Assembly (NCBI GenBank): GCA_026770705.1
Contig: JANJGN010000041.1
Span: forward strand, 5,766,001 to 5,830,000
DNA: 64,000 bases
Source of the DNA: Isurus oxyrinchus
Taxonomy: Eukaryota
Direction: 5' to 3'
The notes below the pieces were generated by a model. That model did not search any database, had not been told where the DNA came from, and saw only the letters and a list, made by a program, of their open reading frames with translations. Positions 2,851 to 60,472 of the stretch are shown here, in pieces. The translations under genes and the position numbers were made by a program. Every line of letters starts with the position of its first letter. Within the stretch, counting starts at the first letter, position 1.

Positions 2851-3062
2851 TGGAAAGCAGACTCCGTTGCTCCCTGTCCCCCAATCTCCCCACCACCCTC
2901 TCTGGCCTTGCCTATATGGCAGCACATGCCAGTTCACCCGAGAAATGAGACATGGACAGGAGGCGGTGAGCAATGCAATGAGACGTTATTCACATGGTTC
3001 AGTAAAGCGGTGGGATCGGGTTCAAGGGGATTCTCCACGTCTGAATGAAACAGCAATCAAGA

Positions 3063-3229
3063 TTAGCTTCTGTCGGAGCCTCGGACATAGGTGCATCCTC
3101 CATGGCCTTGGGCCTCATTTAGACATGCATCAGTGAAAGTCTCTGGCGCACTTGTTAGCAATCTCGTCTGATCGCTTTTGTAGGGGCTCGATTTCCAATA
3201 CCCAACATGTATGCATCCGAATGCGAGGG
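3063..3229 (-). pseudogene. Beta-defensin-like copy 1, exon 2 (disabled)
   Basis: Acceptor is ttttcctgcttttttccag|. It reads (A)LAFG C IHVGY W KSSP Y KSDQ, then a 1-nt frameshift, then EIANK C ARDFH * C MSK*. W (TGG), Y (TAC) and * (TGA) sit at Cys2, Cys3 and Cys5, each one base from TGC. The ancestral frame stops at 3115; the shifted frame stops at 3063. Confidence 0.75.
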
Positions 3230-3879
3230 CTGGAAAAAAGCAGGAAAAATCTCATAAGTCATTGTTTGTGGTTCAGGGGTGGTCGTGTTGTGGGGGGATG
3301 GGTAGTTCTGGGTTTGGTAGAGAGAGTGAGCATCGAGTCACCTCCATTAAAAAGTATGAGGATGAACAGTTGGCAGCTACATAACATTCAAGGTATGTGT
3401 GAAGTGTTAGTAAATGGAATTAGGTAGGTAAGGAAAGTTGTTTCTCAAGTGTCGATGCAGACTCGATGGGCTAAAAGATCTCTTCCACACCGTGTGATCA
3501 TATGATAAAGAAGGTAGTTCTGTCTGTCACTCACGGGAGGGTGGTGGACCACATGGTCTTACACGGAATCCCATGTCTCCCGCTTTTCTTTAGTCAATAG
3601 TTCCTTTCAACGTGTTGACACTATTCACCTCAACCCTTCCCCTCTTATAGAAATTCCCACGTCATCACCTCTCTTGTGTGCTGATGTTTATCCTGATTTA
3701 CCTATTCGATCGCCTTTTGCATCTCTTATCCTGTTGGACACCTAGATATGGGTCAGGCAACAGGTGGGAACATCTTCCTACATCTACCCTATCGAATTAT
3801 CCATGTGTCACACAACAAAAACACGAATTATTCATATCTCTGTGACCGAGCGTAGACCCCCAGCGAGCTTCAGAGGAGT

Positions 3880-4480
3880 GTTATCAAATTGCATCAATCA
3901 TCAACTCACAAGGGATACACTGGGGGAGTGACCAAATGCTAGGTCCATGGTAGGATTTTATTGAGTGACTGAAAGTTGGAGAGACGGCGGGGAACATGTG
4001 GAGAGGTTTTGTGAATGAATTTTGGGGTTCGATTCCCAGGCGGGTGGAGACAGGGCCACGAATGTAGCATAGAATGAAATGGGTGAATGTCCAGGGGCCG
4101 GAAATGTGGTAATGGAGAGATCTTGGAGGCTGGATGGTTGGAGGGAATTACAGGGATAGGGAGGGGGCAAGATACTGGAGGGATTTGAAAACCAGAAACT
4201 GACGTCAGAAATAGATAGACCGGTTGTTTAAAGGGGATCAGAAGTAAACCTCCGGGCACAAGGTGATCAGTGAGTGTTAGGACTTAGGCAGCAGAGTTTT
4301 GTGTGCCTTCACTTTATGTAAGGTGGAATGTGGGAGAAACAGCCAGAGTTATATTGGCATACGGAACTCAAGAATAACCAATGTTTGGATGAAAATTTCA
4401 CTGTCAGGTCCGATGAGACTAGGTCACTGTTGGGTGATGTTTCCGTAGTGGATATAGGTAGTCTTTGAGGTGGCAAGGAT
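3880..4480 (-). mobile_element. L2 LINE 3' fragment in the intron of defensin-like copy 1
   Basis: Reverse of the typical L2 end (ccctccctatccctgtaattccctcc; ttcaaatccctcca). Confidence 0.55.
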
Positions 4481-4644
4481 ATATGGCAGGTATCACATTT
4501 TGGGATCAAATCCACACAAGTCTCTGTCTCGGAGACTTCCCAGGAACAGGGATGAAGTAAGCAGCGAGGGAACATTTGTAAGTCCAGGGCTGAAAACAAT
4601 GGTGTGAATCAAAGAGTTCTCAGAGACACACTCAACTCCGCTAC

Positions 4645-4726
4645 CATCAGGCAGGGCTCTTGCTTGGGCAGTGGTGGTCTGCACCAGTAGCAGGCCAACA
4701 AGAGCCAATAGCAGTGCTTTCATCAT
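4645..4726 (-). pseudogene. Beta-defensin-like copy 1, exon 1 (signal peptide)
   Basis: MMKALLLALVGLLLVQTTTAQARALPD followed by G|GTAGCG, a phase-1 donor at 4644. The site matching the copy 3 donor (after codon 21) lacks GT. Paralogous to 12664 and 16210. Confidence 0.75.
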
Positions 4727-4778
4727 CGTCTGCCAATCTCCTCCCAGTCACAATGAGATGATCGGAGTAAGGGTGGTA

Positions 4779-4784
4779 TTTATA
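4779..4784 (-). promoter_or_regulatory. TATA box of defensin-like copy 1
   Basis: TATAAA on the minus strand about 53 nt upstream of the ATG, at the same spacing in all three copies. Confidence 0.7.
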
Positions 4785-5319
4785 CAAATTAAGAAAAAAA
4801 ATTGTAGTTAAAAATAACACACTTCTGGTGGAGATTGGCTAGCACCACGTCGTGTTAAATTCGTCATTCAGAAATTGGAAGCAACAATAAATTGAATCAC
4901 TGATTAAAGGGGTCTCCAAGGCAAGTTTTCATTAATCAGTAGCAGTAAAACCTCAGCAATGATTAAAATGGGGTTAGTTTATAGAATCACTGTGCGGTGA
5001 TTAAACTGAAGACACACAGTAAAGGAAGAGCCCATTGACCAATCACGCCAGTCCTGCCTCTTTAAATGTACCATCCTATTCTAGCCCCTTCCTCCCCGAA
5101 CTTTCCCCAGTTTTGTATCTCCTGATCCACTTCCCCTTGTGAATGATAACATTGAACCTGCTTCAACTGTCGTTTCTGTCAGCGGGGTACAGGGCAAAAT
5201 AACTCGCTGCTGCCAAAGAAATTTCCACATCTACTCACGAGCCCTTGTAAATTCCCTTAAATCTGTTTTCTCTGGATCCATATCCTCCAAACTTCTAAAA
5301 TATCACACACAGAAAGTTG

Positions 5320-7259: not shown

Positions 7260-7517
7260 TAGTTTTTTTGTTTTTATCTCTGTGTTTAATTGACTGCCAC
7301 TGCTCTTCAAGAAATGCCGACCTCCTTGAAGAAGTTCTGTTCCTCTCTGCGACAAGATTTCCATATCTCTAGTCGAAATCAAGTTCTGTCGAAGGGTCAT
7401 GAGGACTCGAAACGTCAACTCTTTTCTTCTCCGCCGATGCTGCCAGACCTGCTGAGTTTTTCCAGGTAATTCTGTTTTTGTTTTGGATTTCCAGCATCCG
7501 CAGTTTTTTGTTTTTAT
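7260..7517 (+). mobile_element. Young Penelope-type 3' terminal insertion with TSD
   Basis: Contains gaagggtcatgaggactcgaaacgtcaactc...gatgctgccagacctgctgag, the same end type as the GIY-YIG element at 51.4 kb. Flanked by an exact 11-bp repeat ccaaaactaac (7249-7259 and 7518-7528). Confidence 0.75.
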
Positions 7518-10625: not shown

Positions 10626-10939
10626 TCAGGAGCTACAAGATCCCAATGAGAAAATGCCGTGTTCTACACGTATGCCTAAATTGGAGCTGAAAGATGACAA
10701 CATGACTCTTGCATTTTCTAACCTCTCCTCCCTGCCTGCTGGTCGATATGGTGACACAGCGATCCGAGTGAGAAATTACACATGGAGAAGAGGCGGTAAA
10801 CAATGCAGCCATTTTTATGCAAATGATTCAAAAAGCAGCGTGGAAGGGGTCATTGGATCCATGCAATGAATGAAAGAAATTAAAGTCAATCTCAGCCAAA
10901 CCCACAGGTTGACCTGGCAGTACGATATATTCACTTTTG

Positions 10940-11047
10940 TCAACCCCATTCAGCCTCACAACACTTAAAAATGAATCAGCACTTCCAGCGCATTAAGGCC
11001 TCTTCATCATTGCATCCTCTCATTCTACTTGCCACTGCTTCATCGCG
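10940..11047 (-). pseudogene. Beta-defensin-like copy 2, exon 2 (disabled)
   Basis: Reads R DEAVA S RMRG C NDEEALMRWK C *FIFK CC EAEWG*. Cys1 is CGC, Cys2 is AGT, and there is a premature TGA at 10976-10978. The acceptor AG and first codons appear deleted relative to copy 3. X4, X10 and X5 spacings are kept. Confidence 0.75.
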
Positions 11048-11169
11048 AAATCCGAAGGTCATAACAGCCAAGCAATTTATTGAACAATCGATTTGAGTGT
11101 CAAGCTTTTGTTTCCTGATGCAGACTGAGAGCTCAACTATGGGCGGTGATGATAGCATGGCGGAACATG

Positions 11170-11720
11170 GGGGCAAGAGCTGTGCACAGTGCATGTACTG
11201 TGGTCTAACCCATCGATAGGAAGGCCACGGCTGCACACAGTGCTCCGGGTGTGGTCTAAACAAGGCATATGGAGAGCAGAGCTGTGCACAGTGCTCCAAG
11301 TGTGATCTAACCAAAGGATATGGAGACCGGAACTGTGCACAGTGCTCCAAGTCTGTTCCAACCAATGGATATTGAGACCAGAATTGTGTGCGTACTCCAG
11401 CCTTCGTCTAAGCAAGGAATATGGAGACCAGAAATGTGCACAGTGCTCTGAGTGCTGTGTAACCGAGTGATATGGAGACCAGGACTGTGCATAGTGCTCC
11501 ACGTGCGGTCCAACGGAGGGATATGGAAACCAAAATACTGCACAGAGCTCCGAGTGTGGTTGAACTGAGGGAAACAGACAACAGAACTGTGCATAGTGCT
11601 CCAAATGTGGTTTAACCGAAGAATACAGACACCGGCACTGCGCACGTTGCTGTGACTGTACTAGAAGTGAGGTTTATGGGTCCAGCCATATTCAGAGTGC
11701 TCCAATTTTGTCAAACCGAG
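11170..11720 (-). repeat. ~48-bp minisatellite derived from a CR1 ORF2 motif
   Basis: About 11 units of gatatggagaccagaactgtgcacagtgctccaagtgtggtctaaccaag. The minus strand translates to repeats of LVRPHLEHCAQFWSPY. Confidence 0.85.
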
Positions 11721-11732
11721 ATGAACAGAAGT

Positions 11733-11859
11733 GAAAAAATAAAAACAAAAAAGCTGCGGAAGCTGGAAATCCAAAACAAAAACAGAACTGCTGAAGGGTC
11801 ATGAGGACCCGAAACGTCAACTCTTTTCTTCTCCGCCGATGCTGCCAGACCTGCTGAGT
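11733..11859. mobile_element. Short Penelope-type terminal insertion with internal inversion
   Basis: 11736-11785 is the reverse complement of the tail at about 7470-7517, and about 11790-11859 is nearly identical to 7390-7458. Flanked by atgaacagaagt and atgaacagaggt. Confidence 0.7.
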
Positions 11860-11959
11860 ATGAACAGAGGTAGCCGTTCTGCCCAACTAGCAGGGTGCAT
11901 CCTTTGTCGCACTTGGAGAGAGAAGAAATGTCCCATCGCACCACACGGGAACCTGATGG

Positions 11960-12340
11960 GGGGAAAATGACAGAAAACCATAGCAAAACATACTAAAGAG
12001 AGAGAACATAAAGTTCACTCAAGAAATGTTGATTCTAGGGATTATCCCAAAGTGGGAGAAAGAGGTGGAGAGGATTATAGATGGAATAACAGATTCGAGG
12101 CTCCAGCAACCAAATGCTGTGCCCCTAATGGCAGATCCTTCAGTCAATGACTGGAAACACAGAGGATGCCAGAATTCAAGAGTTACCAATACCTGGATTA
12201 GTTTTTTGGCTGTGGCTGATTACAGACGTAAGGAGGTGGTGGGCTGGTTCAGGGATTTGGAAACATGGTATATGCATGATGCACGATATCACCGTGTGAC
12301 AACAGATAGATTGGCAGTACAAGGAGACCGGGAATAAATA
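11960..12340 (-). mobile_element. L2 LINE 3' fragment in the intron of defensin-like copy 2
   Basis: ggagaaagaggtggagagg...gattacagacgtaaggagg...agggatttggaaac. Same type and orientation as the fragment at 3880-4480. Confidence 0.5.
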
Positions 12341-12573
12341 CTTGGTGGAATGAGCTTAATTTAGAAAACTAATGCAACATCTTAAAAACTGATTTTGATA
12401 GCTTTCCCTTTGGAAATCCTTTAATGTCACAGCACCAACGTACATTGATGGAGTTCCGACACATATTAGCTACAATCCACTTGAAATGAAGCACAGCATC
12501 GATGGTTTTAATGGCCTCCTTCTATCTCTCTTAATGCTTCTTTGGCTTGTGTACTGAGAGATGAACTATCCAC

Positions 12574-12664
12574 CTAATAAACATCTTGTAATCGCTGCTC
12601 CATCAGCAGTAATGGGGTGTACCAGCACCAGGAACACAAGCAGCAAAAGCGGTGCTTTCCTCAT
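12574..12664 (-). pseudogene. Beta-defensin-like copy 2, exon 1 (signal peptide; not in the ORF track)
   Basis: MRKAPLLLLVFLVLVHPITAD followed by G|GAGCAG, where the expected GT is absent at 12600. An alternative phase-1 G|GTGGAT lies at 12573. Confidence 0.7.
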
Positions 12665-12717
12665 TCTCCACTCATATCATCCCAGGTCACAATGAGATAG
12701 CTGGAGCACAGACAATC

Positions 12718-12723
12718 TTTATA
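12718..12723 (-). promoter_or_regulatory. TATA box of defensin-like copy 2
   Basis: TATAAA about 54 nt upstream of the ATG at 12664, within a conserved block (plus strand gtcacaatgagat). Confidence 0.7.
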
Positions 12724-12959
12724 TGAAGACATTGCATACTGTAGCTAAAACTGTCACACGCACTCCTTCGGAAGACCCCACCTTCGGAAATTTGAAGGGA
12801 CAGTTAACCGAGTCCAATATTAACTGGAAGCAACTAGTTTTTCATTCATCAGCGATGAGACAGATCGGAATAATAATTGAGCTCACAAAGGTTTATAGGA
12901 ATCTTAAAATCAGCCTCGGCCTCTACGGGGAGAAGAGTTGGGAGCTCTCTACCTTGTTA

Positions 12960-14530: not shown

Positions 14531-14630
14531 TATGGTCCTGCCATTCCCCTTCCTCTCTGTCAACGTGGAGATACACATATATGAGTGAGCAATGAGACAT
14601 GGACAAGAGGCGGTGATCAATGCAACCCGT

Positions 14631-14636
14631 TTTATT
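14631..14636 (-). terminator. Polyadenylation signal of defensin-like copy 3
   Basis: AATAAA about 127 nt after the stop, inside a block conserved in all three copies. The matching sites are CATAAA (10814-10819) and AATAAC (2985-2990). Confidence 0.65.
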
Positions 14637-14762
14637 CACAAGATTCAGAAAGGAAATGTTCAGAGGTCATTGGATCCACCAATGTTTCTGAGCCTGAATG
14701 GCAGACATTACAGTAAGAGTCAGTATGAGACTCAGACAGGTGTCACACTGGTAGAGATTCCT

Positions 14763-14890
14763 TCATTGTAGCTCAGGGAGCCAGCAGCACGTGTAAGGCC
14801 AGACACGCTGCCAGGTGACCAGTGTTTCAAGATGGTGACGCTGGTCATTTCTACAGTCTCCTCCTTTTCTGACACATTCGAGGCTCCAAG
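14763..14890 (-). CDS. Beta-defensin-like copy 3, exon 2 (mature peptide, 4-Cys variant)
   Basis: Acceptor is tcttccattctgatttccag|. It reads (A)WSLE C VRKGGD C RNDQ R HHLETLVTWQ R VWPYT CC WLPELQ*. The frame is open, spacing is C-X6-C-X4-[C]-X10-[C]-X5-CC, and both substituted sites are CGT. Confidence 0.7.
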
Positions 14891-14939
14891 CTGGAAATCA
14901 GAATGGAAGAGACAACAGGCAAGGTTTTTGAGCGTTCAG

Positions 14940-15450
14940 CACTGCTCGAACCCACATATAATTAGACATGTAACGCACACAGCTCTGCAATTGTGGACTA
15001 ACAAGGGAATATGAGGGCAAGAACAGCACAATACTCCAACCAGGTCCTAACTGAGGGATATTGAGACCAAAACTGTGGCAATGCCCCAGCTGTGGTCTAA
15101 CCAAGGGATATGATGACCAGAACTGTGCACAGTGCTCCAGCCGTGGTTTAACCAAGGGATATGGAGACCAGAACAGTGCACGATTCTGCAGATGTAACCG
15201 AGGGATATGGAGACCTGAAATGTGCACAGTGCTCCAGAACGTACCAATATATATATTAAACCAGAAATGTGCACAGTGCTCCACGTCTAACAGACGGGTA
15301 TGGAGGCCAGAACTGTGCACAGAGCTCCAGATCTATCCGATGGATATGGAAACCAAAACTGTGCACTGTGCTCCAGATCTATCCGACGATAACGAGAACA
15401 GAGCCGAGCTCAGAGCTCCTATTGTGGATAAACCACGGGATACAAGGAAC
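14940..15450 (-). repeat. ~48-bp CR1-derived minisatellite (second array)
   Basis: Same unit as 11170-11720 (LVKPRLEHCAQFWSSY). It lies just inside the intron of copy 3. Confidence 0.85.
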
Positions 15451-15579
15451 AGAAACTTACGGATTGAGAATTATGCAATTTATAAAAAACATCAAGAAAA
15501 TAAAATCACTCAATTGCCTTTTGGGAGCATCTTACAATATCATTCCACACAGAGTCAAAATAGCAGTTATTTTTGACAG

Positions 15580-15995
15580 GTGACTCAACATGCACCAAAA
15601 GAGGTTGGATTGAATGACCATCTCCAGGCAGCAGAGAAAGGTGTGTATAAGGTTATACTGGAGAATCTCCAGCCTCGGCTCCAGACAACTGATGGCACGG
15701 TCGCTTACAGCAAGTAACTTATAATCTTGGAACGGGTAGAGTGAGAAATTGGTGGAACGCAGGTATCTGGAAGATTTTTTGGGCTCGAGGAGATTGCAGA
15801 GTGTCGGAGGATCGTGATAATGTTGGGATTTAGAAATGATTAATACAAAATATCACCAAGGGACAGCATGTGGATGGGAAATTCGAGGAGAATGAGGATA
15901 GATCTTCGGCGGATAATAGGTGAGGTTGGATTACAAAAAAAACACCCAATTTTTGAAGAAGGCTAAAATAGAGACCGACATCTTGGTCTTTGGAA
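15580..15995 (-). mobile_element. L2 LINE 3' fragment in the intron of defensin-like copy 3
   Basis: Same decayed L2 end as in the introns of copies 1 and 2 (gagattgcagag...gggatttagaaatg). Confidence 0.45.
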
Positions 15996-16149
15996 AAGTT
16001 TATAATGATAATGGAACCAAAATTGTCCAATGGGCTTAAGACATATATCAGCAAAGAGCAAATTGAAATATAAAACTGGCTTGAGGGGCTGAATGGCCTC
16101 CTCCTATGGTAATGACTGCTTCTGAGAGATAACCTCCGTGGATAACAAC

Positions 16150-16210
16150 CGATAAGCATGGACTCCACCACCATCACCAATCCAAATACCAAGAGCAGTG
16201 CTTTCCACAT
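16150..16210 (-). CDS. Beta-defensin-like copy 3, exon 1 (signal peptide)
   Basis: MWKALLLVFGLVMVVESMLI followed by G|GTTGTT, a canonical but weak phase-1 donor. Splicing to 14890 gives an open 62-aa precursor. Confidence 0.7.
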
Positions 16211-16262
16211 CTTCCCCTTAGCTCCCCAGAGTCACAGTTGGATGACTGGTGTACACATGATC

Positions 16263-16268
16263 TTTATA
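16263..16268 (-). promoter_or_regulatory. TATA box of defensin-like copy 3
   Basis: TATAAA about 53 nt upstream of the ATG at 16210. Confidence 0.7.
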
Positions 16269-16819
16269 TGAACTGAGAGAGAATTATGTCGCTAATAATC
16301 GTTGGCACCGTGAGGGCTGGATGTACGTTGGGCAGGTTAAAGGAACATTTCACTAAATGAGGCCGGCTGTAACTGTAATCCCCGGCTAAATGTCTCTCCC
16401 AGGCCGGATTTTATTAATCAACAGATAGACGGATCTGTGTAAAGATTGAGCATGTGAAGGGTTAAAGGAATTGTTCTCTGTGTTTAAAATAAGGAACAAT
16501 CTTCAGATTAAGGGCGCCATTTGGCCCACGGTGTCTCTGTTGGCTCTGTGAAAGGGCTGCTGAATTATGCCCCTTCAATCTCTTCTCTTTCCCGATTGCC
16601 ACGCTATTATTTTTACAGTGCCCCATTTGAAAGTTACCATTGAATATGCTCCAATATCTTTTTGGCAAGCGCATTCCAGATCACAAAAGCTTTCTGTCAA
16701 GAAGACATTCTCTTCACCTTCTCTCCACTTCCTTTGTGAATTATTTTCAAACTATTTGTACTGATTTCCAGATCTGTGCACTGTCTGAAATATCCCAGCA
16801 CATCTATTGGAAGTAGAAT

Positions 16820-18689: not shown

Positions 18690-19250
18690 CAAGATTAATT
18701 GCCCATCCCTAATTGCCCCATGAGAACGTGGTGTGTGAGCTGTCTCCTTGAGCCGCTGTCTTCCCGTGTGCTTTAGGTACTCCCAAAGAGCTGATAGGGA
18801 GCGAGTTCCAGGATTTGAGACAGAAGATGTGCAGTAATTGTGGTATAGTTCCAATCAGAATGGTTTGGTGCTTGGAGAGGTACCTTAAATGATTATAATC
18901 CCCTGTGCCCACAACCCTTGTCCTAACAAGCAGTGGGGATCAAGGGTTTGGAAAGCTGTGCTGAAGGATCCTCGGTGTTTTATTGCAGCGCACCTTGGTG
19001 ATGATATACACTGAAGCCATTGAGAGCCATGTGGAGACATCCTCCTCATTTTTGATCAGATGCCACGAGGCTTCACGGGATGTGGAGTGAACGTCGAGTG
19101 CTCCCGGAAACATACCTTCGTGACTCAGGTGAGACTGCCCTGCCGCTGTGGATGATAATTCCCAGGGACAGTGAATTAGAAATCTGGGCTTGTGGCTTCA
19201 AGCTATGATTGGATACGGGATGCTAAGTCAGCCAGTTGATCGATTAGTCT
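18690..19250 (-). mobile_element. CR1-group LINE fragments (3' tail and endonuclease piece)
   Basis: Reverse of the ggcaattagggatgggcaat tail at about 18700. An APE-like piece at 19020-19250 resembles 14330-14530. Confidence 0.55.
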
Positions 19251-19259
19251 GTGGGACAG

Positions 19260-20836
19260 CTCTTTCAATTCAGAGTGGGCTCTGTGTTCAGCGAGGTCTC
19301 TGTGTTCAGCGTGGATCCTGTTTTGAATGTGGGCTCTGTGTTCAGCGTGGTCTCTGTGTTCAGTGTCTGCTCTGTGTTCAAAGTGGGCTTTGTGTTCAGT
19401 GTGGGCTCTGTGTTAAGTGTGTGTTCTGTGTTCTGACTGTGCCCACTTTCAGTGTAGGCTCTATGTGCAGAGTGGGCTTTGTGTTCAGTGGGTGCTCTGT
19501 GTTCAGAGTGTGTCCTGTGTTCATGTGGGCTCTGTGTTCTGTGTGGGTACTTTGTTCAGTGTGAGCTCTTTGTTCATTTTTGGGTTTTCTGTTCACTGTG
19601 GGCTCCGTATTCAGTGTGGTCTCTGCGTTCAGAATGGTCTCTGTGTTCATTGCGATCTCTGTAAGCAGTTAGGGCTCTGTGTTCAGTTTTGGCCCTGTGC
19701 TCAGTTTGGTCTCTTCATTACAATATTTAAACCTGATGGATGTTGATAAACGTAACCACACAGCAGCTGTGGTCAGTGTTTTTGTCAGTATTCAGTGTGG
19801 GCTCTGGATTCAATGTGGGCCTTCTGCTCAGAGTGGGCCCAGTGTTCGAGTTGGCCCTGTGATCAGATTAGCACTTTGTTCAGAGAAGGCCTTGTGTTCA
19901 GAGTGGGCCCTGTGTTCAGCGTGTGCCCTGTGCTCAGATTCAGCCCTTTGTTTAACGTGGACCTGACTTCAGTGTGGGCCCTGTGTTCAGTGTGAGCTCT
20001 GTGTTCAGTGTGGTATGCCTTCAATGTGGGCCCTGTGTTCTGTATTGACTCTGTGTTCGGTGTGGGTATTGTGTTCAGTACAAGGTCTGTGTTCATTGTG
20101 GTCTCTGTGTGCAGAGTGAGGTCTGTTTTCAGTTTTGGGCTCAGTATTCAGTGTGGGCTATGAGTTCATTCTGGAGCTTGTGTTCAGTTTTGGTTCTGTG
20201 TTCAGAGTGGGCCCTGTGTTCAAAGCGGGCCCTTTGTACAATGCGGGCCCATGTTCAGAGTGGACACACTGTTCTGTGTGATCTCTGTGTGCATTTAGGG
20301 CTCTGTGTTCATTGTGGGCTCTGTATTCATCATGGGCTTTGTGTTCTGTGTGGGCCTCGGAATCAGTGTGGGCTCTGTGTTCAGAGTGGGCTCCGTGTTC
20401 AGAATGGCCCCTGAGTCCCGAATGGGCCCTGAGTTCAGAGTGTGCTCCGTGTTCAGTGTGGGCTGCTTCATCAGTGTGGCCTCCATGTTCAGAGAGGACA
20501 GGTGTTCATCGTGGGCTCGGTGCTCAGAGAGGGGTCTGTGTTCTGAGTGGGCTCTGTGTTCAGTGTCTGCTCTCTGTTCATAGTGGGCCCTGTGTTCAGC
20601 GTGATCTCTGTGTCCAGGGTGTGCTCTATGCTCACAGCGGCCCCGTGTTCAATGTGGTCTCTTTGTTCAGAGTAGGCTCTGGCTTCAATGTGGATTCTGT
20701 GTTCATCATGGGCCCTGTGTTCAGAGTGGACCCTGTGTTCAGTGTGGCCCTTGTGTTCAAATTTCATCCTTGTTCAGTGTGGCCTCTGTGTTCTGAATGT
20801 GCTCTGTGTTCAGCGTGGGCTCTGTGTTCAGTGTTC
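19260..20836. repeat. 18-bp minisatellite (tgtgttcagtgtgggctc)n
   Basis: Directly visible tandem array of about 1.6 kb. It generates the spurious Cys-rich ORFs in this interval. Confidence 0.95.
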
Positions 20837-21119
20837 TAAACACGTCTCCCCTGCTTTCCCCACATTGCCCAGATGTTTAATCCTTTCAATTATTTATGCA
20901 CCTGATATTCTGGAACTTCCTACTGAATCGGCTTCCAGGCAGAGCGTTCCAGATCACAACATCTCACGGTGTAAAATTAAATTCACCTCAGCTTCGATAT
21001 ACTTCAGTTTCCACTAACCTAAAATTATCTTCAATGTTCTCCTGTTGATCACCAGATCTCGCAGCCTTGAAAGTTCTCTTTGGATAACGAAAAGCCCTGG
21101 GAAAGATGTACCCCACGTC

Positions 21120-26200: not shown

Positions 26201-27289
26201 AATATACTGCTGGTTTTGCCCAATGACCCGTGGCTTCAGGATTGGTCTGATGAGTGATCTGACGATGCAGACTGACAAACTTGATCCCCCTTTCAAGGGG
26301 ATGACTTTGATGATAATGACGACAAGGATTCAGCTCTATATTTAAATATCTTAATAAATGTAACATTGAGGAATATTTGACTCCAAGATCATGCTTCACC
26401 AACTAGCTGTCGGATGTCTTTACAATAAGTTCACATTAAGGACGCCCTTCATCATGTCGTGTGGCACAAACATCTTGCCGATTAGGATTGATTCTGAAGA
26501 GATCCAGCAAATCAAACTGAGCATCTATGAGGCCCTGAAGCCCAATCGCAACATCACTATTGCATCAAACACAATCTTTAACCTCATGGCCACTCATATG
26601 ACCCAGCAACCACTCCACAGTACTGCAAATCCTAGTTCATTGACGAGTGCAGGTGGCCATGACAGGAGTAACAGACACCAAACCTAAAAATGTTTTGAGC
26701 TCTCTCTGGTGAACTGTGAGATGCAATTTTCACTGATCCATACCAAATCCCAATGAAACTCAATACTCTGAATTATATAGTGAGCTCTCCAGGCAGGGGT
26801 GAAAACCACTGAGTGTATCCCGCCAACGTAGAAAAGCCATATTATGGCATATAAGGTAACCTGGAAAATAATCTGTTTTCAGCAGTGAAATAAGAAAGGA
26901 GCGAACTTAATATATCAATTCGTTTCTGAAATAAACCAGGAAGAGTAAATTCTAAACACGACCTTCCTGTAATTAGATTGGACTATAGGGAGGTACTTCA
27001 AAGTTAGACCAGAATATAAGGAATTGGAAAAGGAACTGAAAATGCGGCTCCTTGAGCCTGCTCCACCATTAGATAAGATAATGGCTGATCCTCCAGTACT
27101 TCCATTTCCATATCCCCTTCTAACCCCAATAACCTTTGATTGTTTCCCTATTATGCCCTATTATGCTATCTTCCAGGAATTACATTCGGGATGTCGTAAA
27201 GAAGATATTAGAAACTGATGAGACAATTGTGTTTAAATAGGACAATTGCGTTGTAACTGATCGTTTTGAAAATAGTTGTAGGATTGGGC

Positions 27290-28070
27290 AGGGTGAGATT
27301 GGGAAAATTGTGTGAATTTATCCACTTCGGTCAGAAAATCAGAAATGCAGAGTAATTACTGCTAAATAGTCATTGTTGATGTGGATGTTGACTTGCATAT
27401 GCTTGTTCATCAGTCACGGATAAACTATGAGGTAAAGCAAGCAATTAGAATTGCAACGGATATCTTGGCTTTCCTTGCAAGTGGTTTTGATTGCAGGAGT
27501 AATTATGGCCTGCAGAATTTGCATTAAACGTTAGTGAGATAACAGCATGAAGATTTTGCGCAGATTTAGCCACTTGAATTGAGGAAGCATATATGTGCCA
27601 TCGAGGGGTGTCAGGAAAGTTCTCCAGGCTGACCTCGTATGGTACGAGTTAAAGGAGACTGGGTCTGTGCCCTCGAGAGTTTAGAAGTATGATAGATTAT
27701 CTTATTCAAGCATATAAGATTCTTAAATTTCTCAGCCAATCAGGTACACAAAGGTTCTAACCCCAGTCTAGGTTTTCAAGATTAAGGGCAAATCCTCAGA
27801 ATATGAGGTCAAACATTTTGCACAGGGTTGCAGAGCTATGCCGTCAATTATACTGTGGTGCACCTCTTGAATTCGCTAACCCAGAGGGCTCTGAAAGCTG
27901 AGTCATTGAGCATTTCTTAAAACAAGAACTGATAAATGTGCTGGTATTATAGTATGCAAGGGTTGCTGATGGCACTGGGCAATGGTGGTGAGGTAGAAGA
28001 TGCCCCATTATCTAACTTAATTTTGGAGCAGATTCAAAGGGCCGAATGACCTGCTACTCTTGTATCCTAA
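27290..28070 (+). mobile_element. CR1 LINE RT to 3' end
   Basis: KCEFIHFG.KN.../L.LYKTLVR/LEFR.M..DLI..YKIL motifs in decayed form, ending ggccgaatgacctgctactcttg. Confidence 0.7.
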
Positions 28071-29539
28071 GTCCCATTGCTCTTTGCTGCATGAGGAATC
28101 TCATTCAGTGATTTATTTTTATCAATGCAGCATTCTAATATTGCAGAATATTGACGGGCGCTGTTCGAAGTCGTTTATTAACAAATAAGTTAGCAGAATG
28201 TCGAAATATTCACCTCAGGTACACTCAGGCCAACATTATTCGAACAGTGAACACAGCAAAAGAAAATATTCTGTAGGCAATATAGGGAAACAGCAATTAA
28301 CAGGATGGATCCAATTGTGTTTATGGCCTGCAGAGACACCATCGGTCAACAGGTGGCCTTCTATGTTCAAATATCCAAATGAAAGAGTGTTCTAAATAGA
28401 TTGACTGGCTGCAGATAAACTGTCTTACCTATGGCTCTATGGGAACTAAAAGGTATTGAGTATCTGAGTAACAATGAAGGATAAATCTGGAATGAATTGC
28501 AATGGAATGAATCAAATTCTTAGAATGATTCTATACCACTATATTCACCAGTGATCTTTTAGAACTTTGTTATGTAACGGAAAGCTCCATCATATCGCAT
28601 ATGTGCCTATACCTACACAATATTATTCCCGTGCTTATGTTCAGTAAATGCTTCATGGTTTTACGCTATTACCACTTGGGTCTGTCTGTATGGATGGACG
28701 AGTCAGCTTTCAATGATATGTTGATATTTCCCAGGTCTAATTTACACGTGGCATGTGAACCCGTTAATTTTTGAATGGCATTCTGAAGCAAACTCGTTCA
28801 ACGCACCCTCTGCATTCCTATGAGTACACAGAGACTCTGTCCAGGGTTTGTTACAGTTCAGTTCCTTTTCCCTTTTTGCAATTTTGAAATGCCTTCTAAA
28901 TGCATAGTTCAGTTAATACATGTTGCAGAGTTTCACTATCTGCGCAACTCTTCACATGTTGTAAATCTCCCCTGACCATTGTAGAGGCCGTTTTAGCCCA
29001 TCTTCACAATGCTGGGAACGATCCATGAGATTCTTAACCCTCCTTCTCGAACGCGAAACCCCTAACACCAGCCTTACGAAATGCAAACAAACACGCAAAT
29101 ACATGGACACATGCACACACTTACATACACACAACTCCAAGGTATTACAATGATAGAGTCCATATTCTCCATCAGCGATGAGGCTGTGTTGCTTGCCTGT
29201 GACAATGACGGTGATACAATATAAGACCGTTCCTAGCCCACAACATGTTTCTAGTCAGAATTCCCTGACACAGGTGAGGGACACAGCTATCAGCGTTGGC
29301 AGCCATGAGGGTCGTGGCGAGGTATTTGAATAACCCCTTTGACATTAGCAGCTAAAAGATCTCCCCTTGAGGTCCAGCTAGGCTGCAGTGTATCACTGAT
29401 TGTCCCTCTTGCTGCAATTCATTCATGGGATGTGGGAACCTTGTGAAAATTTCTAAGGGTTAGTTGTTGTTGTGATCCTAGCTGATGTTTTCACTTGACA
29501 AGTCAGATTGCAGAATGGAACATGGATTGATAGGCCATT

Positions 29540-30460
29540 TGTTATCTTTGTTAACCTTCCAGTTTATTAACTGAAATAGGTTCTGGTTTATGCTGTGTTA
29601 TTTTTGAAACAAAAGATAAAATGTTTACTAAACAGTAAGCATTGAACATATTGCATGAGGAATCAAAGAGTTTGGAAATATTTGAACACAGGCACCAAGA
29701 AGTAACTGGCTCAAAATCAGGATATCCATTTTAACATTACTGCAGTTACGGCCGTAGACTCCATTGAAGAGATGCCATTATTTCCACATCCAGCGTAAAA
29801 CCGGCTCAGTTGAAAAGATGGCTCTTTCCCAGTTGACTTCTGAATAATCACTAGAAGATATTCGACAGTTGGTCTCCCCTTTGGGATGTCTATAAACTAA
29901 GTCCAAATCCAGTATTGTTCTAAATTTAGAGCAATGCATATGAGTTCCTTAACAATCTGGCATGATTTCCCGGAAGACTGAGTCTGAGACATTTTTCCTG
30001 TGTTGACTTTGTTGTATCCACATTGCAATTAACTAAAACAGTTCCTCCCAGTGTCCCAATGCCTCTGTGGGTCTCTCTCCGAACCCCTGTTGCTACAATG
30101 CAGCACAGTTTATTTTTCTCTTACATTTGCTAAATTACAAACCATTTGTCACTGAGATATTCGCTTCAAGAAATATAAACACTTATTATAAATGCATGTA
30201 TGCAAACAGGGCCAGAAGACTGCCACCTCAGCCTCACGTAATCTTAAAATGAAATCAGACGTCGTTATCACCCTTTTTTAATAAACACATATTAAAAAGA
30301 TTATAAATTAAACTGAACTTTATATCCTGTTCCTAACACCCAAAAATAAAAGCAAAACTCACTTAAAACGATACTTGTTCCAAACATTAATTTTCATCAA
30401 ATCCGAAAGTTCGATTTTTTATTATTTAACAATGAGCCCTCGGTTATGCTTGACGTAACA
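29540..30460 (-). mobile_element. Old solo LTR-like element, also present at about 47630-48573
   Basis: About 920 bp bounded by TGTTA...TAACA, non-coding, and shared by both duplication copies. Confidence 0.45.
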
Positions 30461-44634: not shown

Positions 44635-45339
44635 TTAGACCATCTGAATCATTAGTATCTCTAGAATTATTCCATGTAATTTATCATTTCAAGAGCGAGG
44701 ATGGGCCTTTCACTGGAGGGGATGGAACAATGGGAGATTCCTGATTTTTCACATTGAATTCCACATTTCCTGCGTGGGGTGGGTGATGGCACTGGGCTGC
44801 GAATGAATCTCTGCTTGTTTTTGGAACTTTCACCTTGATTTTCACATTTCTAGTGCGGGTAGGTGTCTGTGACAAAGCACAGTTTCAAAGCAGGGGCTTC
44901 ACTCAGTAATATGTATTCCTGAAATCGAGTAGGAGCTCGCAGCATCTGGGCACGCTATTTCATTATTCCCGGTATTAATATTCAAGTAAATTGAAGTAAA
45001 CTCTCTGGTGCCTCGCTGGTTAATTAGCTGAAGACATGTAACTGATTGGAACAGGCAGTTATCTCATGTTCCAAACTGAACTTATATCCTCTAAATTAAA
45101 CAGGCCCATTCCCTAGAAAGTGATCAAATAATTCAATGTTCTTCCATTTTTCAAAAATTAAAAAAAGTTTGGCGTTATATATCCATAACAGCTGGAAATG
45201 AACAAATGTCACCACAGTTTATAAGAATACATGGAGACTGAATAATCTCTGTAGATCTGTAAGCTTAACATCAGTAGCAGGGGAAATTCTGCAACCTATT
45301 ATAAAACCTAATTGTTTTGAAAATAGTGGTAGCATGGCG

Positions 45340-48300
45340 GAGAGTGAGATTTGGAAGAATGTGTGAATTTATCCACTTTGTTCAGAAAATCAGAAATGCA
45401 GGGTAGTTAATAAATGGTAAGTAGTGATGTCGAAATTGAGCTAAATATCCTTCTTCATCAGTCACTAATAAACTATGTGTTGAAGGAAGCAATTAGAAAT
45501 TCAAAAGGTGCCTTAGCATTTCAAGCAAGTGAATTTGATTGCACGAGTAATAATATAATGTTGCAATTGCGTCAAACATTTGTGAGAAGGCAGCAGGATA
45601 TTTTGCACAGTTTTAGCCAATTTAACCAAGGAAGGTTGTAGGTGTCTCAGAAGGATTGTAAGGAAAGTACTCCATGTTGATGACCTATGGGGAGAGTTTG
45701 AGGAGTTTGTGTGTATGTTCTCTAGAGTGTAGAAGAATAAGAGATGATCTCAATGAAGCATACATATTTCTTACATTGTTCAACCGTTTAGACACGTAAA
45801 TATTATTGATACACTCTAGGTGTTCTAGATTAAAGACTCAGTCTCAGAATATGAGGTAGAACATTTTGGACTGAGATGCGGAGGAAATCAGTCACTTATA
45901 GGGTGGTGAATCACTGGAATTCCCAACGCCAGTGGGCTGTGAAAGATGAGTCATTGAGCATGTTTAAAACAAAAATCGATAAATTTCTTGTTACTAAAGT
46001 GTGCACGGTTTTGTGGATTTTGCTAGGAAATTGTGTTGATGTAGAAGAACCGCCATTATCTAGTTTAATGTTGGAACGGGTTAAACGGCCCAAATGACCT
46101 AGTCCTCTCGTTCCCTAATTCCATTGCCCCTTGCAACATGTGGAATCCCATTCAGTCATGTATTTTTTATAATTGTACATTCAAATATGCAGAAGAGTGA
46201 AGGGCGCTGTTCAACGTCGTTTATTAAATGATGAATTATTTGAATGTGGAAATATTCAATTCTTGTACTGTCAGGCCAACAGGATTCGAATAAAGAGCAG
46301 GGCAAAATAGATGACCCTGGAGGCCAATCCAAGGAAATAACATTTCACTGTATTGATCCTATTGAGTTTTAGGCCAGCAGAGGCATCTCTGGTAGACAGG
46401 CTGCAATCTGCGTTGAAGTAGACAAATGAAAGAGTTTTCTAAATAGCTTGATTGGCTGCCAGCTGAACTGCCACATCTGTGGATCATAGTTACTCAATGG
46501 TGTTGAGTGTCTGAGGAAATATAAATAATAAGATGTTTTAATTCTGCTAAGAATTGCAATGGAATAAATCATATTTGTATAATTAAACAGTTCCACTTGT
46601 GATCTTTTAGACCAGTGCTTTCTATTCGAAATCGCCTAGATGTCACATATGTGGCTATGACTACCTGATTTTATTCCTGTCTTTATTTTCTGAAAGCACT
46701 TAATGGTTTTACGCTATTAACCAAGGGGTCGGTCTGGGTGGATGCAAGAATCAGCTTGGACTGATGTGTCTCAGATCTTATTTACACATGGCTTGTGAAG
46801 CTTGTTATTTTGAATAGCTTTCTGAAGTAAACTCATTCAGCATACCCCCTGCATTCCCATGAGTTCATGGAGATCCTGTCCAGGGCTTGTTAAAAGTCAG
46901 TCGGATTCCATTTTTTAAATTTTTGAAATGACATCAAAATGCATCGTTCACATAACGTATTAATGAATCAGTTGCAGAGCTGGACTGTTGCGCTGGTGTT
47001 GAATTGATGGTGCTCATTGTTGTGCTTTGTTTCAATACTTATTTTCCGCTCAACTCTCAACATGTTATAAATCTCTCCCCATCATTGAAGAGGACAATTT
47101 AGCGCATCTTCACACTACTGGAATGGATCAGTGAGATACTTAACCCTCCTTCTCGCACACGCACAACGTACTACAAGCCTACCCGAACCCATACAAACAT
47201 ATACACACACACACGCACACACACACACACCTCCAATTAAAGGGTTACAATGATTGTCTGGATTGTCCTTCATTGATCAGGCTGATTTGCTTGCCGGTGA
47301 ATATGATAAATGGCATTCCGTTCCTATCTCGCGACATTTTGCAGGTCGGAACTCACTGTCCTAGCTGAAAGAAACAGCTATCAGCGATGGTAGCCATGAG
47401 GGGTCATGGCGATTTACATAAATAAACCATCTGATGTCAGCAGCACGTAGTTCTTCCCTTGAGATCAAGCAGGCTCCAGTGAATGCAGCCGAGCGTCGTT
47501 TTTGCTATAATTCATTCATGAGATGCGGGAATCAAGTGAATAGTACTTGGGGTTAGAGTTTTCTGTGATCCCAGCTGATGTTGTCACGTAACAATTCAGA
47601 CTTCAGAATGCATCATGGATTGATAGGCCATTTCATATCTTTTATAACCCTTAGAGGGTACTTATTTAAACAGATTCACAATTATCTGACCTTGCTGTGT
47701 TATTTTTTAAACAAAAGATTTAAAATAATACTTTACACAAGCATTGACTATTTTCCATTCGGCAACAAACACTTTGCATAGGTTTCAACACAGGCGCCAA
47801 GATTTAAGTGGCTGAAGTTCAGACTACTCTTTTATCACTGCAACAATTACAGACCAAAGACTCTTGTGAAGAGGTTCCACTATTCCACATTCAGGGTAAA
47901 GCTAGTTCAGTTGCAATGACTGCACTTTGCCAGTGGACTTCTGAACATTCGCCGAACATATTCTGCAATTGGTAGCCCCGTTGGGATGTCCATTAACTAA
48001 CTGTAAATTCACTATTGTTTTAAGTTCAGGGCAACGTATTTGATTTTCTTAACTATCTGGGATCATTTGTAGCAAGGCAGAGTCTGAGATTTTTTTTTTT
48101 TGCATTGACTAAGTTGTTTCCTATTAATAATTAACTAAAACTGCTTCTCTCCTTGTCTCCATATCACTGTGGGTCTCCTTCTAATACCCTGCTGCTAAAA
48201 AAAAAGCACAGTTTATATTTATCTACCATTTATTTTTGTTGTAACTTCATTAAATTATCTCTTTGCTTCAATAAATATAAAAAAAATATTAAAAATGCAT

Positions 48301-51365: not shown

Positions 51366-51369
51366 TTTA

Positions 51370-52410
51370 AAACAAAAAATGAAATAAATATACCTGCAAA
51401 AAGTCAGCAGGTCTGGCAGCATCTGCGGAGAGGAAAATAATTAACGTTTCGAGTCCGTATGACTCTTCAGCAGAACTTATAAAAAATAGAAAAGAGTTTA
51501 ATTATAAGCTGGTAATAAGGGGGACAGTGTAGAGCTGTATACAGAGCAAGTGATAGGTGGCGATAGCCAAGTGATGACATCGACATAAGGACAAAGAAGT
51601 GTTGAAGGCGGTGATATTATCTAAGGAATGTGCCAATTAAGGATAGAAATCAGGACAATCAAGGTACAGGTAGCCCTTGTGGGGCTGGGCTGGGGTGAAG
51701 GGAAGGGATCGAAACAGCCTAACAGGTAGAGATTAAACAATGGATGAAAATGCGTTTAAAAATAAAGGAAATAGGTGGGAAAAGAATTTTTTTAATAAAC
51801 TATTCGGAAAAAGAGGGGGGGAAGGGGGGGCGATGGTTGGGATCGGAAAGGGGTGGGGATGGAGTAGAGAGTTCCGGACCTTAAATTGTTGAACTCAGTA
51901 TTCAGTCTGGAAGGCTGTAAAGTGTCACGTCTAAAGATGAGGTGCTGTTCCTCCAGTTTGCGTTGAGCTTCACTGGAACAATGCACCAGTCAAACGACGG
52001 ACATCTGGTCATGAGCGCAGGGTGGAGTTTGGAAATATCAAGTGACAGTAAGGTCGGGTCATGCATGCGGGCAGACCAAAGGTGTGCTGAAAAACGGTCA
52101 CCCAGTCAGCTTTTGTCCCTCCAATGCAGAGGAAACATGCACTTGAGCAACAAATGCAGTAGATTAATGCAGTAGGCAGCCTTCCGCAGGGATATTTCCC
52201 TTCGGGATACCCTGGACCACTCCTCCATCACCCCCTACACCTCAGCCCCCTCCCACGGTACGTTCACATGCAACCACAGAAGTTGCAACACCTGCCCCTT
52301 CACTTACTCTCTCCTCAGCGTCCAAGGGCTAAAACAATCCTTCCCATGGAAGCAACATTTCACCTGCACTTCCCTCCATTTTGTCTAATGGATTCGTTTC
52401 TCCCAAGTCC
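51370..52410 (-). mobile_element. Penelope-like retroelement 3' part (GIY-YIG endonuclease) with an inverted 5' segment
   Basis: Minus strand: IYCICCS...CIG.T...LGDRFSAH and QRKLEEQHLIFR.DTLQPSRLNTEFNN, then the terminal gactcgaaacgttaa...gatgctgccagacctgctga. Plus strand 52175-52405: AFRRDISLRDTL...GTFTCNHRSCNTCP. Confidence 0.85.
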
Positions 52411-54829: not shown

Positions 54830-55400
54830 TGAATGACAGCTGCATCTGCCAATCAGGAATCAACTTCTGTTGATTCACTGCTGCCCACACAAATCATTGA
54901 GATCTACTTGGTGATTGGCTGTTGCATCGACAAATTAGCCAATTCAACAGTTCACCCACAGCTGCCAATTTGTGATCTCACCTCGTGAATGATAACATAT
55001 CAGCCAAGCTGGTAAACCAACCAGGTGACGTATATCATTTCAGCCAATCGGCAAGATAGCAGCCTGGCAGACAGCTGCATTCACCAAACAGGGAAACATT
55101 CTTGTTAATTAACAGCGACCTCTGTAAATGATCAACCTCCGACTGGGGAAAGACAGAGATTTCATCCAATCAGGCAGCATCACCTTGTGACTGAGAGTAC
55201 CCCTCAACAATCAGAGAGTTCCGCGCGGTAAATGCAATGGCCTCTTTTATTCAGGAACTCCTGTATGGACAAAGCAGAGCTACAGAGATGTGACTGTCAT
55301 CTCAAATAACTAATCGAAATTTATGAAAGAACGATCATCATCCACAATCCTTAACGGAAACTTTGCACTGTCCGACTCACAGTTGCCTTATCCAATCACA
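54830..55400. repeat. Degenerate CCAAT-rich tandem repeat
   Basis: Recurring gacagctgc...ccaatcag units about 40 bp apart. Confidence 0.45.
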
Positions 55401-58060
55401 GATGGAGTAACAGGCACGGCCCGCACTCTGACAATTGATTAGCAGGTCCCGGCTCCGCTCTGACAATGAAGGAACAGGCCCCGCCTCCACTCTAATATTG
55501 TGGCCACAGGTCCCACCTCAGCTCTGTCAAAAGGGCATCAGACCCGCCCCCGAACTGGCAAAACATCACCAGGCCCCTCCTCCACTCTGACAATTTTTGC
55601 AAAACTCACCGCGCCAGCTTGGCGAATGCATCAACAGGCTCCGCCTCCACTCTGACAGTGTAGTATTAGGCAACACCCCCTCTCTGACAACAAAGTAGAA
55701 GATCATGCCTCCCCTCTGAAAATCTAGGAACAGGCCATGGCTCCGGTTCAACAATGGAGCAACAGGACCCGCTGCAGTTTCGAAAATGGATCAAAAGGCC
55801 GCAGCTCTGCTCTGAGAACAGGCCCCACCTCCGCTCCGACCATGGAGCACCTGGCCCAGCATCGGATCTGACAAAGGAGCAACAGGCTCTTGCGCTGCTC
55901 TGACAATGGAGGAAAAAGCTCTGCTCTGCCTCTGACAATGGAGCAACAGGCCTCGCTCAAGCGCTCTCGGTGGATAAACATGTTCCGCCGTGGCTCTGAT
56001 GAAAGAGCAGTGGGCGCAGCCCCGGTTCTGACTATCGGTCAACATAAAGTATGACAATGGACTAACAGACCCCACTCCTTCTCTGACAACGGAGCAACAG
56101 GACCTGCCTCCTCCCTGACAATGGAGTAACAAGCATCCCTTCCGCTCTGAAAATGGAGTAACAGGCAAAGCCCCCGCTCTGACAAGTAATCAACAGGCCC
56201 CACCTCCTCTCTGAAAATGTAGCAACAGAAACCTCCCCTGCTCTGTCAAAGGAGCAACAGGCCCCACCTCCGCTATGAGAAGAAGGAATAGGCACCGAGT
56301 ACGCTCCGAGCAGGGAGCAGCTGGCCCAGCCTCAGGTCTGACAATGGAGCAACAGGACCCGCCCCCGCGCTGTGAATGGAGGAAAAGGCACTGCATCGCT
56401 CTCAAAATGGATCATTGGATCCCGCATCTGCTATGGCAATGGAATAACAGTCCCTGCTCCTGCTCTGTACCTGGAGCAACAGGCCCTGCCTCCTCTCTGA
56501 CAATATAGCAACAGGTCCCGCCCCAGCTCTGTAAAAAGAGCATGAGGCCCCACGCCTGTTCTTACAAAAGAGCATCGGGCGCAGCCTCGGCTCTGACAAT
56601 GAATCAATAGATGCCACCTCCGCTATGACAATGCAGAAAACAGACTCCTCTCACTCTCTGACAATGGAGCAACAGGCCCTGCCTCCGATCTGACAATGGA
56701 GGAACAACCCAGCCCCCTCTCTGACAATGAAGTAACAGGCCATGCCTCTGCTCAGACAATTGATCAACAGGCCTCTCCTCCGCTGTGACAATGGAATAAC
56801 TGGCCACGCCTCTGCTCTTTCAATTGATCAACAGGCCACGCCCTGACTCTGACAATGGAGTAACAGCCACAAACCCCGCTCTGATAATTGATCAACAGGC
56901 CACGCCTCCGCTCTGACATTGGGGTATCAGGCACTGCCACCAATCTGGCAATTGTTCAGTTGGACCCGCCTCTGCTCTGACAGTAAAGGAACAGTTCCTG
57001 CTCCCGGGCTGACAATGAAGGAACAGGCTCTGCCTCCCCACTCAGAATTCAGCAATAGGTTCCGCCCCAGCTCTGTCAAAAGAGCATGAGTCCCCACCCC
57101 CGCACTGGCAGAAGATCAACAGGCCCAGCCTGCACTCTGGCAATGGAACAAATTGCCCCACGACAGACTTCACAATGCATCAACAAACCCCACCTCTGCT
57201 CTGACAATGAAATATCAGGCAACACGCACTCTCTGACAACGCAATAACAGGCTATGCCTCCACTCTGATAATCCAGGTAAAGGCCCCGCCTCCGCTTCGA
57301 AAATGGAGCAACAGGCCCAGCCTCGAGAATGGCAATGGAGCAAAAGAACCATCCCCCACCCTGACAATGGAGTAACAGGCCTCGCCCAAGCTCCCTCATT
57401 GGATCAAAATGTCCCGCTCCTGCTCTGACAAATGAGCATCAAGCCCCACCCCTGTTCTGTCCAAAGACCATCGAGGTCAGCCCCAGCTCTGACAGTGGAT
57501 TAATTGACGCCGCCCCCGCTATGTCAATGAAGTAACAGTCCCCGCTCCCGCTCTGCCAATGGAGCAAGTGGCCCTGCCTCCCTCCCTTCTGACAATGTAG
57601 CAATGGGTCCCGCCCCCGATCTGTCAAAAGAGCATCAGGCCCTGCACCCGCAGTGGCAAAAGAGCAACAGGCCCCACCTCCGCGCTCGCAATGAAGGAAT
57701 AGGCCCCGCCCACGCAGCGGCGAAAGAGCAACAGGCCCCGCCCCCGCAGTAGCAAAAGAGCAAAAGACCTCGACTCCACTCTGACAATGGAGTAACAGGC
57801 ATTGGACTCGAACGGGGAATGGATAAACAGGCCCTGATCCGTGGCTGACAATGGGGTAACAGGCACAGGCCGCGCTCAGGCAGTGGATAAACAGGCCCCG
57901 CCTCCGCTTTGACAATGAAGGAACAGGCCCCGCCCCCACAGCGGCAAAAGAGGATCATGTCCCGTCCCTGCTCTGAGAAAAGAACATCGGGCGCAGCCAA
58001 GGCTCTGACAATGGATCAAAAGATCCCGCCTCAGCTATGACAATGGAGTAACAGAACTCG
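55400..58060. repeat. GC-rich ~32-34-bp minisatellite (ctctgacaatggagcaacaggccccgcctccg)n
   Basis: Directly visible array of about 2.6 kb. It is the source of the LLLHCQ.GG ORFs. Confidence 0.95.

Positions 58061-60432: not shown

Positions 60433-60472
<40 letters not shown>

Follow-up and report, generated by a model that had tools for sequence, protein, structure and literature searches.

Beta-defensins and the locus under study

The disulfides of beta-defensins join cysteines 1-5, 2-4 and 3-6, and the six-cysteine motif of the family has been defined as Cx5-7(G/A)xCx3-4Cx9-13Cx4-7CC (PMC2883079). Departures from this pattern are on record: Defr1, a five-cysteine allele of mouse Defb8, is active through a covalent dimer (PMC2883079), and in the Komodo dragon, for which 66 beta-defensin genes are predicted (33 in human), 13 of the 66 products are predicted to be neutral or anionic and VkBD80b has arginine where its twin VkBD80a carries Cys1 (PMC6716921). 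Birth-and-death evolution is known for the family (PMC4255768). In a 2019 review, section 14 deals with the antimicrobial peptides of sharks and no defensin is named there (PMC6795676), and the titles and abstract openings of the open literature yielded neither a description of shark beta-defensin genes nor a natural beta-defensin lacking both Cys3 and Cys4.

The window analysed here is a stretch of 64,000 nt of Isurus oxyrinchus DNA (G000:C41:5766001-5830000) from an assembly of 4.98 Gb. Three defensin-like genes, termed copies 1, 2 and 3, lie on its minus strand (Table 1), with copies 1 and 2, both broken, downstream of copy 3. The sequence comparisons suggest, with a probability of roughly 0.7, that copy 3 is a pseudogene with an open frame, from which Cys3, Cys4 and the greater part of the donor consensus have gone.

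Table 1. Positions within the window of the elements of copy 3 and of its broken neighbours
Feature	Position	Strand	Observation
TATA box TATAAA, copy 3	16268-16263	-	sequence; paralogues carry the motif in the same place
Exon 1 coding part, copy 3	16150..16210	-	ATG 16210; 61 nt, phase 1; 20 hydrophobic signal-peptide-like codons and 1 nt
Splice donor GTTGTT, degraded	16144..16149	-	alignment; U1 pairing -2.8 kcal/mol
Short piece of high-copy repeat inside copy 3 intron	16074-16105
Intron, copy 3	14891..16149	-	1259 nt, GTTGTT...CCAG, phase 1
51-bp minisatellite inside copy 3 intron	about 14975-15454
Exon 2 coding part, copy 3	14763..14890	-	four Cys and stop (14765-14763)
Cys3 position, CGT (Arg)	14838..14840	-	7/7 copies of clade
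Cys4 position, CGT (Arg)	14805..14807	-	5/7 copies of clade
Poly(A) signal AATAAA, copy 3	14631..14636	-
Copy 2, broken paralogue of C45 type	10766..12727	-	ATG 12664; family donor GTGAGT absent; exon 2 with stop and cysteines missing
Copy 1, broken paralogue	2940..4815	-	ATG 4726; exon 2 from 3229, frameshift and TGA at Cys5

Organisation of the copy 3 gene

An initial annotation, made from the DNA letters alone, described copy 3 as a possibly live four-cysteine defensin variant with its TATA box, ATG, GT and AG splice sites, open frame and AATAAA all intact. Each of these elements is found in the sequence, but the donor is a twice-damaged version of that of the family. Joining 16150 to 14890, at splice positions homologous to those of the relatives, reproduces the annotated frame of 62 codons and product of 62 aa. 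Exon 1 encodes a putative signal peptide, while the cysteines occupy codons 26, 33, 55 and 56 of the spliced frame and the CGT codons 38 (14840) and 49 (14807) align with Cys3 and Cys4 of the six-cysteine relatives. The composition of the exon 2 peptide, counted again (5 K/R, 5 D/E, 4 W and 2 H), agrees with its earlier description as near neutral. Many paralogues match exon 1, and the same holds for exon 2 and for the 3' UTR; the gene pattern is thus not due to chance.

Several other features were observed in the window. Tandem arrays of 18, 32, 52 and 51 bp are located at 19240-20850, 55400-58050, 58400-62400 and 11138-11689, with the 51-bp array present in the introns of both copy 2 and copy 3. 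A duplicated block of 2.7 kb (27257-29996 and 45308-48096; 72% identity), which holds no open frame of 120 aa, is possibly the GPCR pseudogene of the initial annotation. A short repeated element, likely a young mobile element, occurs at 7381-7515, 11742-11859 and 51369-51478, with 81-98% identity between the copies, and is also found just after the donor in L068.

Relationship of copy 3 to the beta-defensins

The six-cysteine motif is present in exon 2 of the related loci L009, L010 and L019, while copy 3 has four cysteines and arginine at the positions of Cys3 and Cys4. These two cysteines fall in different disulfides, so that the lost pair are not partners, and the sequence of copy 3 leaves 1-5 alone possible of the pairs 1-5, 2-4 and 3-6. 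Its ancestry is nevertheless that of a six-cysteine gene: it is 61% identical to the six-cysteine L009, while exon 1 (about 72%) and the 3' UTR show 72-76% DNA identity to the intact genes on contig C45, homologies which bear out the annotation of copy 3 as a beta-defensin-family gene. The layout for phase-1 splicing of a signal exon to a mature exon is present, but with a degraded donor. Net positive charge, which is usual and not universal in the family, is absent from copy 3, and several intact C45 genes also have charges of 0 to +2. By these sequence comparisons copy 3 descends from a beta-defensin gene, yet its predicted product is not classed as a beta-defensin, as it lacks two of the six cysteines.

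Profile and structure searches gave a mixed picture. The exon 2 peptide of copy 3 matched no Pfam family (including PF00711 and PF13841) at E<=10. Only one of five exon 2 peptides scanned was matched, that of the C45 gene L029 (22.2 bits, above the PF00711 cut-off of 21 bits), and because the six-cysteine relatives L009, L028 and L006 were missed as well, the blank for copy 3 says little. The fold of the family is a helix with a three-stranded sheet; one of five AlphaFold models of copy 3 is defensin-like (pLDDT 68.7) and the other four reach 48-53; the best model, which is driven by the alignment of six-cysteine relatives, has 7lzl as its top Foldseek match (probability 0.99, E 0.11), with none at E<=0.001. 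Beta-defensins are also the top Foldseek matches of the L009 model (pLDDT 72.5), again with none at E<=0.001, and a profile of nine peptides matched mallard AvBD3 alone (E 0.11). The Atlas neighbours of the copy 3 peptide include no defensin, unlike those of L029; the chromo domains among them (0.83) were set aside as noise, the recognition being below threshold. Protein searches by shared words with exon 2 of L009, alignment A1 and the C45 exon 1 read-through produced no candidates, and the single HMMER match among 1.84 billion representatives, a Lys/Cys repeat protein, was judged spurious.

Arginine codons at the Cys3 and Cys4 positions

The two CGT codons are real and are repeated across paralogues, as annotated. 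At Cys3, CGT is found in copy 3, in its twin and in five copies on C39 and C56 (7/7; three contigs), while at Cys4 it is found in five of the seven close copies, the other two carrying TGT and forming one group in the tree of non-coding DNA (support 87), where the TGT is most simply read as a CpG reversal. The five C39/C56 copies are dead, having ATT in place of the start codon, Ser at Cys2 and a TAA stop at codon 29, and retain CGT at Cys3 (5/5) and Cys4 (3/5). Copy 3 differs from them by about 15% in non-coding DNA and, on the paralogue alignment, the change of Cys3 to Arg is older than this split, as is probably that of Cys4. A coincident double loss also occurs in L008, which has no exon 1 coding match and in which Cys2 and Cys3 have both become Gly.

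It had been argued that these T-to-C changes, each creating a CpG, run opposite to the CpG decay of a neighbouring pseudogene. In the non-coding DNA, loss of CpG is fast (5/10) and gain is rare (2/131 TG/CA sites), and two such gains are indeed uncommon, but the dead copies retain CGT too, so that the retention of these CpG sites in copy 3 is no sign of selection and the argument for a live gene falls. A contig of the X1 run that covers Cys4 has one other letter in 336 nt, with no difference at Cys4 among the rows listed, and ends at 14835, short of Cys3. Raw DNA reads from a second sample (4% of each of three runs) cover exon 2 at a depth of 0-2.

Stepwise decay of the splice donor

Positions +3 and +5 weigh most in a splice donor after the GT itself. 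The homologous donor reads G/GTAGGT in the sister subfamily, G/GTTGGT in the outgroup copy on C82 and, with one base lost, G/GTTGTT in copy 3 and its clade. Pairing with U1 falls along this series from -9.0 through -5.0 to -2.8 kcal/mol, against -7.1 in the intact C45 genes, this energy being a crude donor score calculated against the motif at the U1 end. By the same measure the copy 3 donor ranks 26th of the 93 GT sites in the gene, and within exon 1 it is surpassed by three out-of-frame GT sites of phase 0, at 16177, 16171 and 16168 (-5.2 to -5.4). The best alternative phase-1 donor within the open frame, at 15945 (-4.9), would add about 68 intron-derived codons and was rejected, not being the family donor. 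Unspliced RNA of copy 3 has a frame of 126 codons that excludes the defensin exon. As the five dead copies share the donor loss, it is older than their split from copy 3, as far as the alignment of these paralogues indicates. When contigs of four runs guessed to be RNA were compared at 80% likeness, none covered the bins 14596-14988 or 16168-16400 and none spanned an exon junction, which is no evidence on expression either way.

Relatives of copy 3 in the genome

DNA and protein searches of the genome returned the same full-length exon 2 matches, at least 13 each with copy 3 included, and a search with exon 1 added a third twin and the sister subfamily; as these searches score the best 30-40 candidates, the family counts are minimum values. 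Further copies of the block around copy 3 occur with 95-99% identity on C41 and 80-87% on C39 and C56. None of the 13 other members found in the subfamily is unbroken. Three recent duplicates, including copy 3, are 97-98% identical, and two of the three have been lost: codon 6 of the twin at C41:1.26M is hit by a 1-nt deletion, seen also in an X1 contig and in one of three X5 reads, and the twin at C41:4.62M (L062) has no exon 2 of its own. The latter is a deletion chimera, in which the copy 3 exon 1 and start of the intron are fused to a copy 2 exon 2 remnant. Elsewhere, the copy at C56:2.84M has lost the GT and contains two TGA codons, while the outgroup copy at C82:0.61M has lost the AG as well as Cys2 and Cys3. 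Four subfamily copies have no exon 1 coding match within the 5-6 kb fetched upstream. None of the 12 loci fetched for the sister subfamily (L063-L075; L074 and L075 without an exon 2 match) shows, in the translations, both a six-cysteine exon 2 and an open exon 1; exon 1 of L082 contains a stop, and no intact exon was found in the translations of L083. A premature stop in copy 3 was considered and discarded, since the outgroup copy at C82:0.61M has the same TGA and a 1-nt gap accounts for the longer tail seen in the L009 group.

Further six-cysteine exons were observed elsewhere in the genome. L006 (690-800) and L076 (G000:C39 near 1.305M) have an intact six-cysteine exon 2 of the copy 1 type, with no exon 1 near it within the fetched stretch. 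L048-L051 have an exon 2 with six or seven/eight cysteines, and a simple repeat after the promoter where exon 1 would be; promoter-plus-repeat units of this type recur at a spacing of about 3.7 kb on C56 near 1.90-1.92M. A cationic six-cysteine exon 2 with a tail occurs in L084 (2180-2330; G000:C41 near 1.476M). At G000:C30:8949942-8950022 there is a PF00711 match above the cut-off, with no six-cysteine motif in the fetched stretch.

The intact array on contig C45

One 28-nt exon 1 start has at least 128 exact matches in the genome (0 for the reversed control); of the 100 listed, 97 lie on contig C45, which is 5.3 Mb long. All 20 C45 loci picked by likeness of the 3' UTR (L028-L047) have a six-cysteine exon 2, and the 19 parsed genes (L035 left out) all predict intact six-cysteine precursors of 70-71 aa with GAA/GTGAGT and AG splice sites, the donor being assigned from the phase. 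Two of four further loci picked by exon 1 (L078-L081) are intact; in L080 (about 4050-4170, minus strand) another, different six-cysteine exon 2 lies beside a C45 gene with an interrupted exon 1. The net charges of the C45 genes range from 0 to +6, and word-based searches found no relative of the array in the protein collection. In six C45 pairs exon 1 shows no differences while the dN of exon 2 is 0.10-0.29 and exceeds dS in 5/6, a pattern which suggests diversifying selection or gene conversion. With at least 128 exact exon 1 starts in the genome, most of them on C45, and with identical signal exons and fast-changing mature exons, this family is of more note than copy 3 itself.

Selection on copy 3 and chance survival of its frame

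Neutral dN/dS was among the results that the initial annotation named as speaking against a live gene. Pairwise values between copy 3 and its five nearest non-twin relatives are indeed near neutral, at 0.69-0.95, but those to two outgroup copies are 0.52 and 0.63. Only 186 coding nt enter these small counts, made from pairwise and outgroup site patterns; as all the partners are broken genes, the values are pulled towards 1. Copy 3 differs from its twin by two non-synonymous and no synonymous changes; codons 6, 32 and 39 tell the two apart. The changes that outgroups place on the copy 3 branch are four non-synonymous and one synonymous, in keeping with the site ratio (p=1.0), besides an ambiguous site at Cys4. 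Coding changes (5-6 of 192) have accumulated at about half the rate of non-coding ones (64 of 1125; Fisher p 0.08-0.17), and with a tree branch length of 0.080 the 4-5 non-synonymous changes compare with 11.4 expected (p 0.011-0.029).

In simulations, the frame and the GT/AG survive by chance in 12-31% of cases at the 0.057-0.08 substitutions per site of the branch alone, and in 1-8% at 0.136-0.19, the range for an earlier death of copy 3, with the stem added in part or in full. When the four cysteines, TATA and AATAAA are also considered, survival is 3-10% for the branch alone and under 1% with the stem included. Choice of copy 3 as the best-looking among dozens of broken copies softens these low odds and does not remove them.

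The nature of copy 3

The initial annotation named an early pseudogene as the alternative, on account of the weak donor, and this proves the better reading, given the stepwise decay of that donor, the broken paralogues that share its lesions and the near-neutral dN/dS. Copy 3 would be a duplicated beta-defensin gene whose open frame likely survived by chance, in a birth-and-death process in which defensin blocks of two or three genes were presumably duplicated segmentally onto C39, C41, C56 and C82 and decayed there, with intact genes remaining in the C45 array. A transcript of copy 3 would stay mostly unspliced, giving the 126-codon read-through without the defensin exon, or the stronger out-of-frame GT sites in exon 1 may be used; either way little or no mature peptide would be expected. 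This reading is preferred despite the low survival odds because the best-looking of dozens of broken copies was picked and because the state of the donor speaks against a live gene.

The live variant first proposed now appears unlikely. It supposes that the weak donor is still used and that a secreted, near-neutral, Trp-rich peptide keeps Cys1-Cys5; Cys2 and Cys6 could enter a new bond or a covalent dimer, as the five-cysteine Defr1 does. The retention of frame, ATG, GT, AG, TATA, AATAAA and four cysteines over at least 0.057-0.08 substitutions per site argues for it, as does the coding deficit (p 0.01-0.17, dependent on the baseline). The activity of the five-cysteine Defr1 as a covalent dimer (PMC2883079) and the neutral or anionic beta-defensins predicted in the Komodo dragon (PMC6716921) are consistent with it too, and so is the one defensin-like model, though driven by the six-cysteine alignment. 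However, the donor has been damaged twice, all other subfamily members found are broken, non-synonymous changes exceed synonymous ones 4:1, the lost cysteines are not disulfide partners and four of the five models remain at pLDDT 48-53.

Slightly less probable still is a late death, in which a weakly spliced four-cysteine form lingered under some constraint on part of the branch before falling silent, wholly or almost so. This would account for the coding deficit and explain why two of the three recent duplicates have been lost, but the donor was in its present state before the copy 3 branch began, and the scarcity of changes extends to the synonymous ones (1, beside 4 non-synonymous), a pattern that chance fits as well as constraint. 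The notion that the CGT codons are TGT misread in the assembly has next to no credibility, as CGT stands at Cys3 in seven copies on three contigs and at Cys4 in five.

If copy 3 is a pseudogene it is ordinary, one step of birth-and-death evolution. As a live gene it would put disulfide rewiring in the defensin fold to a natural test, with a new topology, a Cys2-Cys6 bond or a covalent dimer, in a family whose copies number well over a hundred.

Comparison with described systems

With the beta-defensins (PF00711, PF13841; AvBD3 7lzl, hBD-1 2nlq, hBD-2 1fd3) copy 3 shares the two-exon layout of signal and mature parts and a similar spacing, C-x6-C-x4-[C]-x10-[C]-x5-CC with G-x-C before Cys2, the bracketed cysteines being those replaced. 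Weak sequence and fold matches to 7lzl, 2nlq and 1fd3 come from its six-cysteine relatives. It differs in keeping Cys1, 2, 5 and 6 only, in a charge near zero, in its degraded donor and in that the canonical three disulfides are impossible. Defr1 is likewise a beta-defensin with a missing cysteine (PMC2883079), but it lacks Cys1 only, has a charge of +6 and measured activity, whereas the predicted peptide of copy 3 lacks two non-partner cysteines and is neutral. The Komodo dragon clusters resemble the shark loci in being large, with duplicates, some neutral or anionic members and one cysteine-to-arginine change (PMC6716921), although VkBD80b has lost one cysteine and copy 3 two. Against the 66 Komodo genes, one exon 1 start recurs in exact form at least 128 times in the shark genome, which also carries dozens of decayed copies on other contigs.
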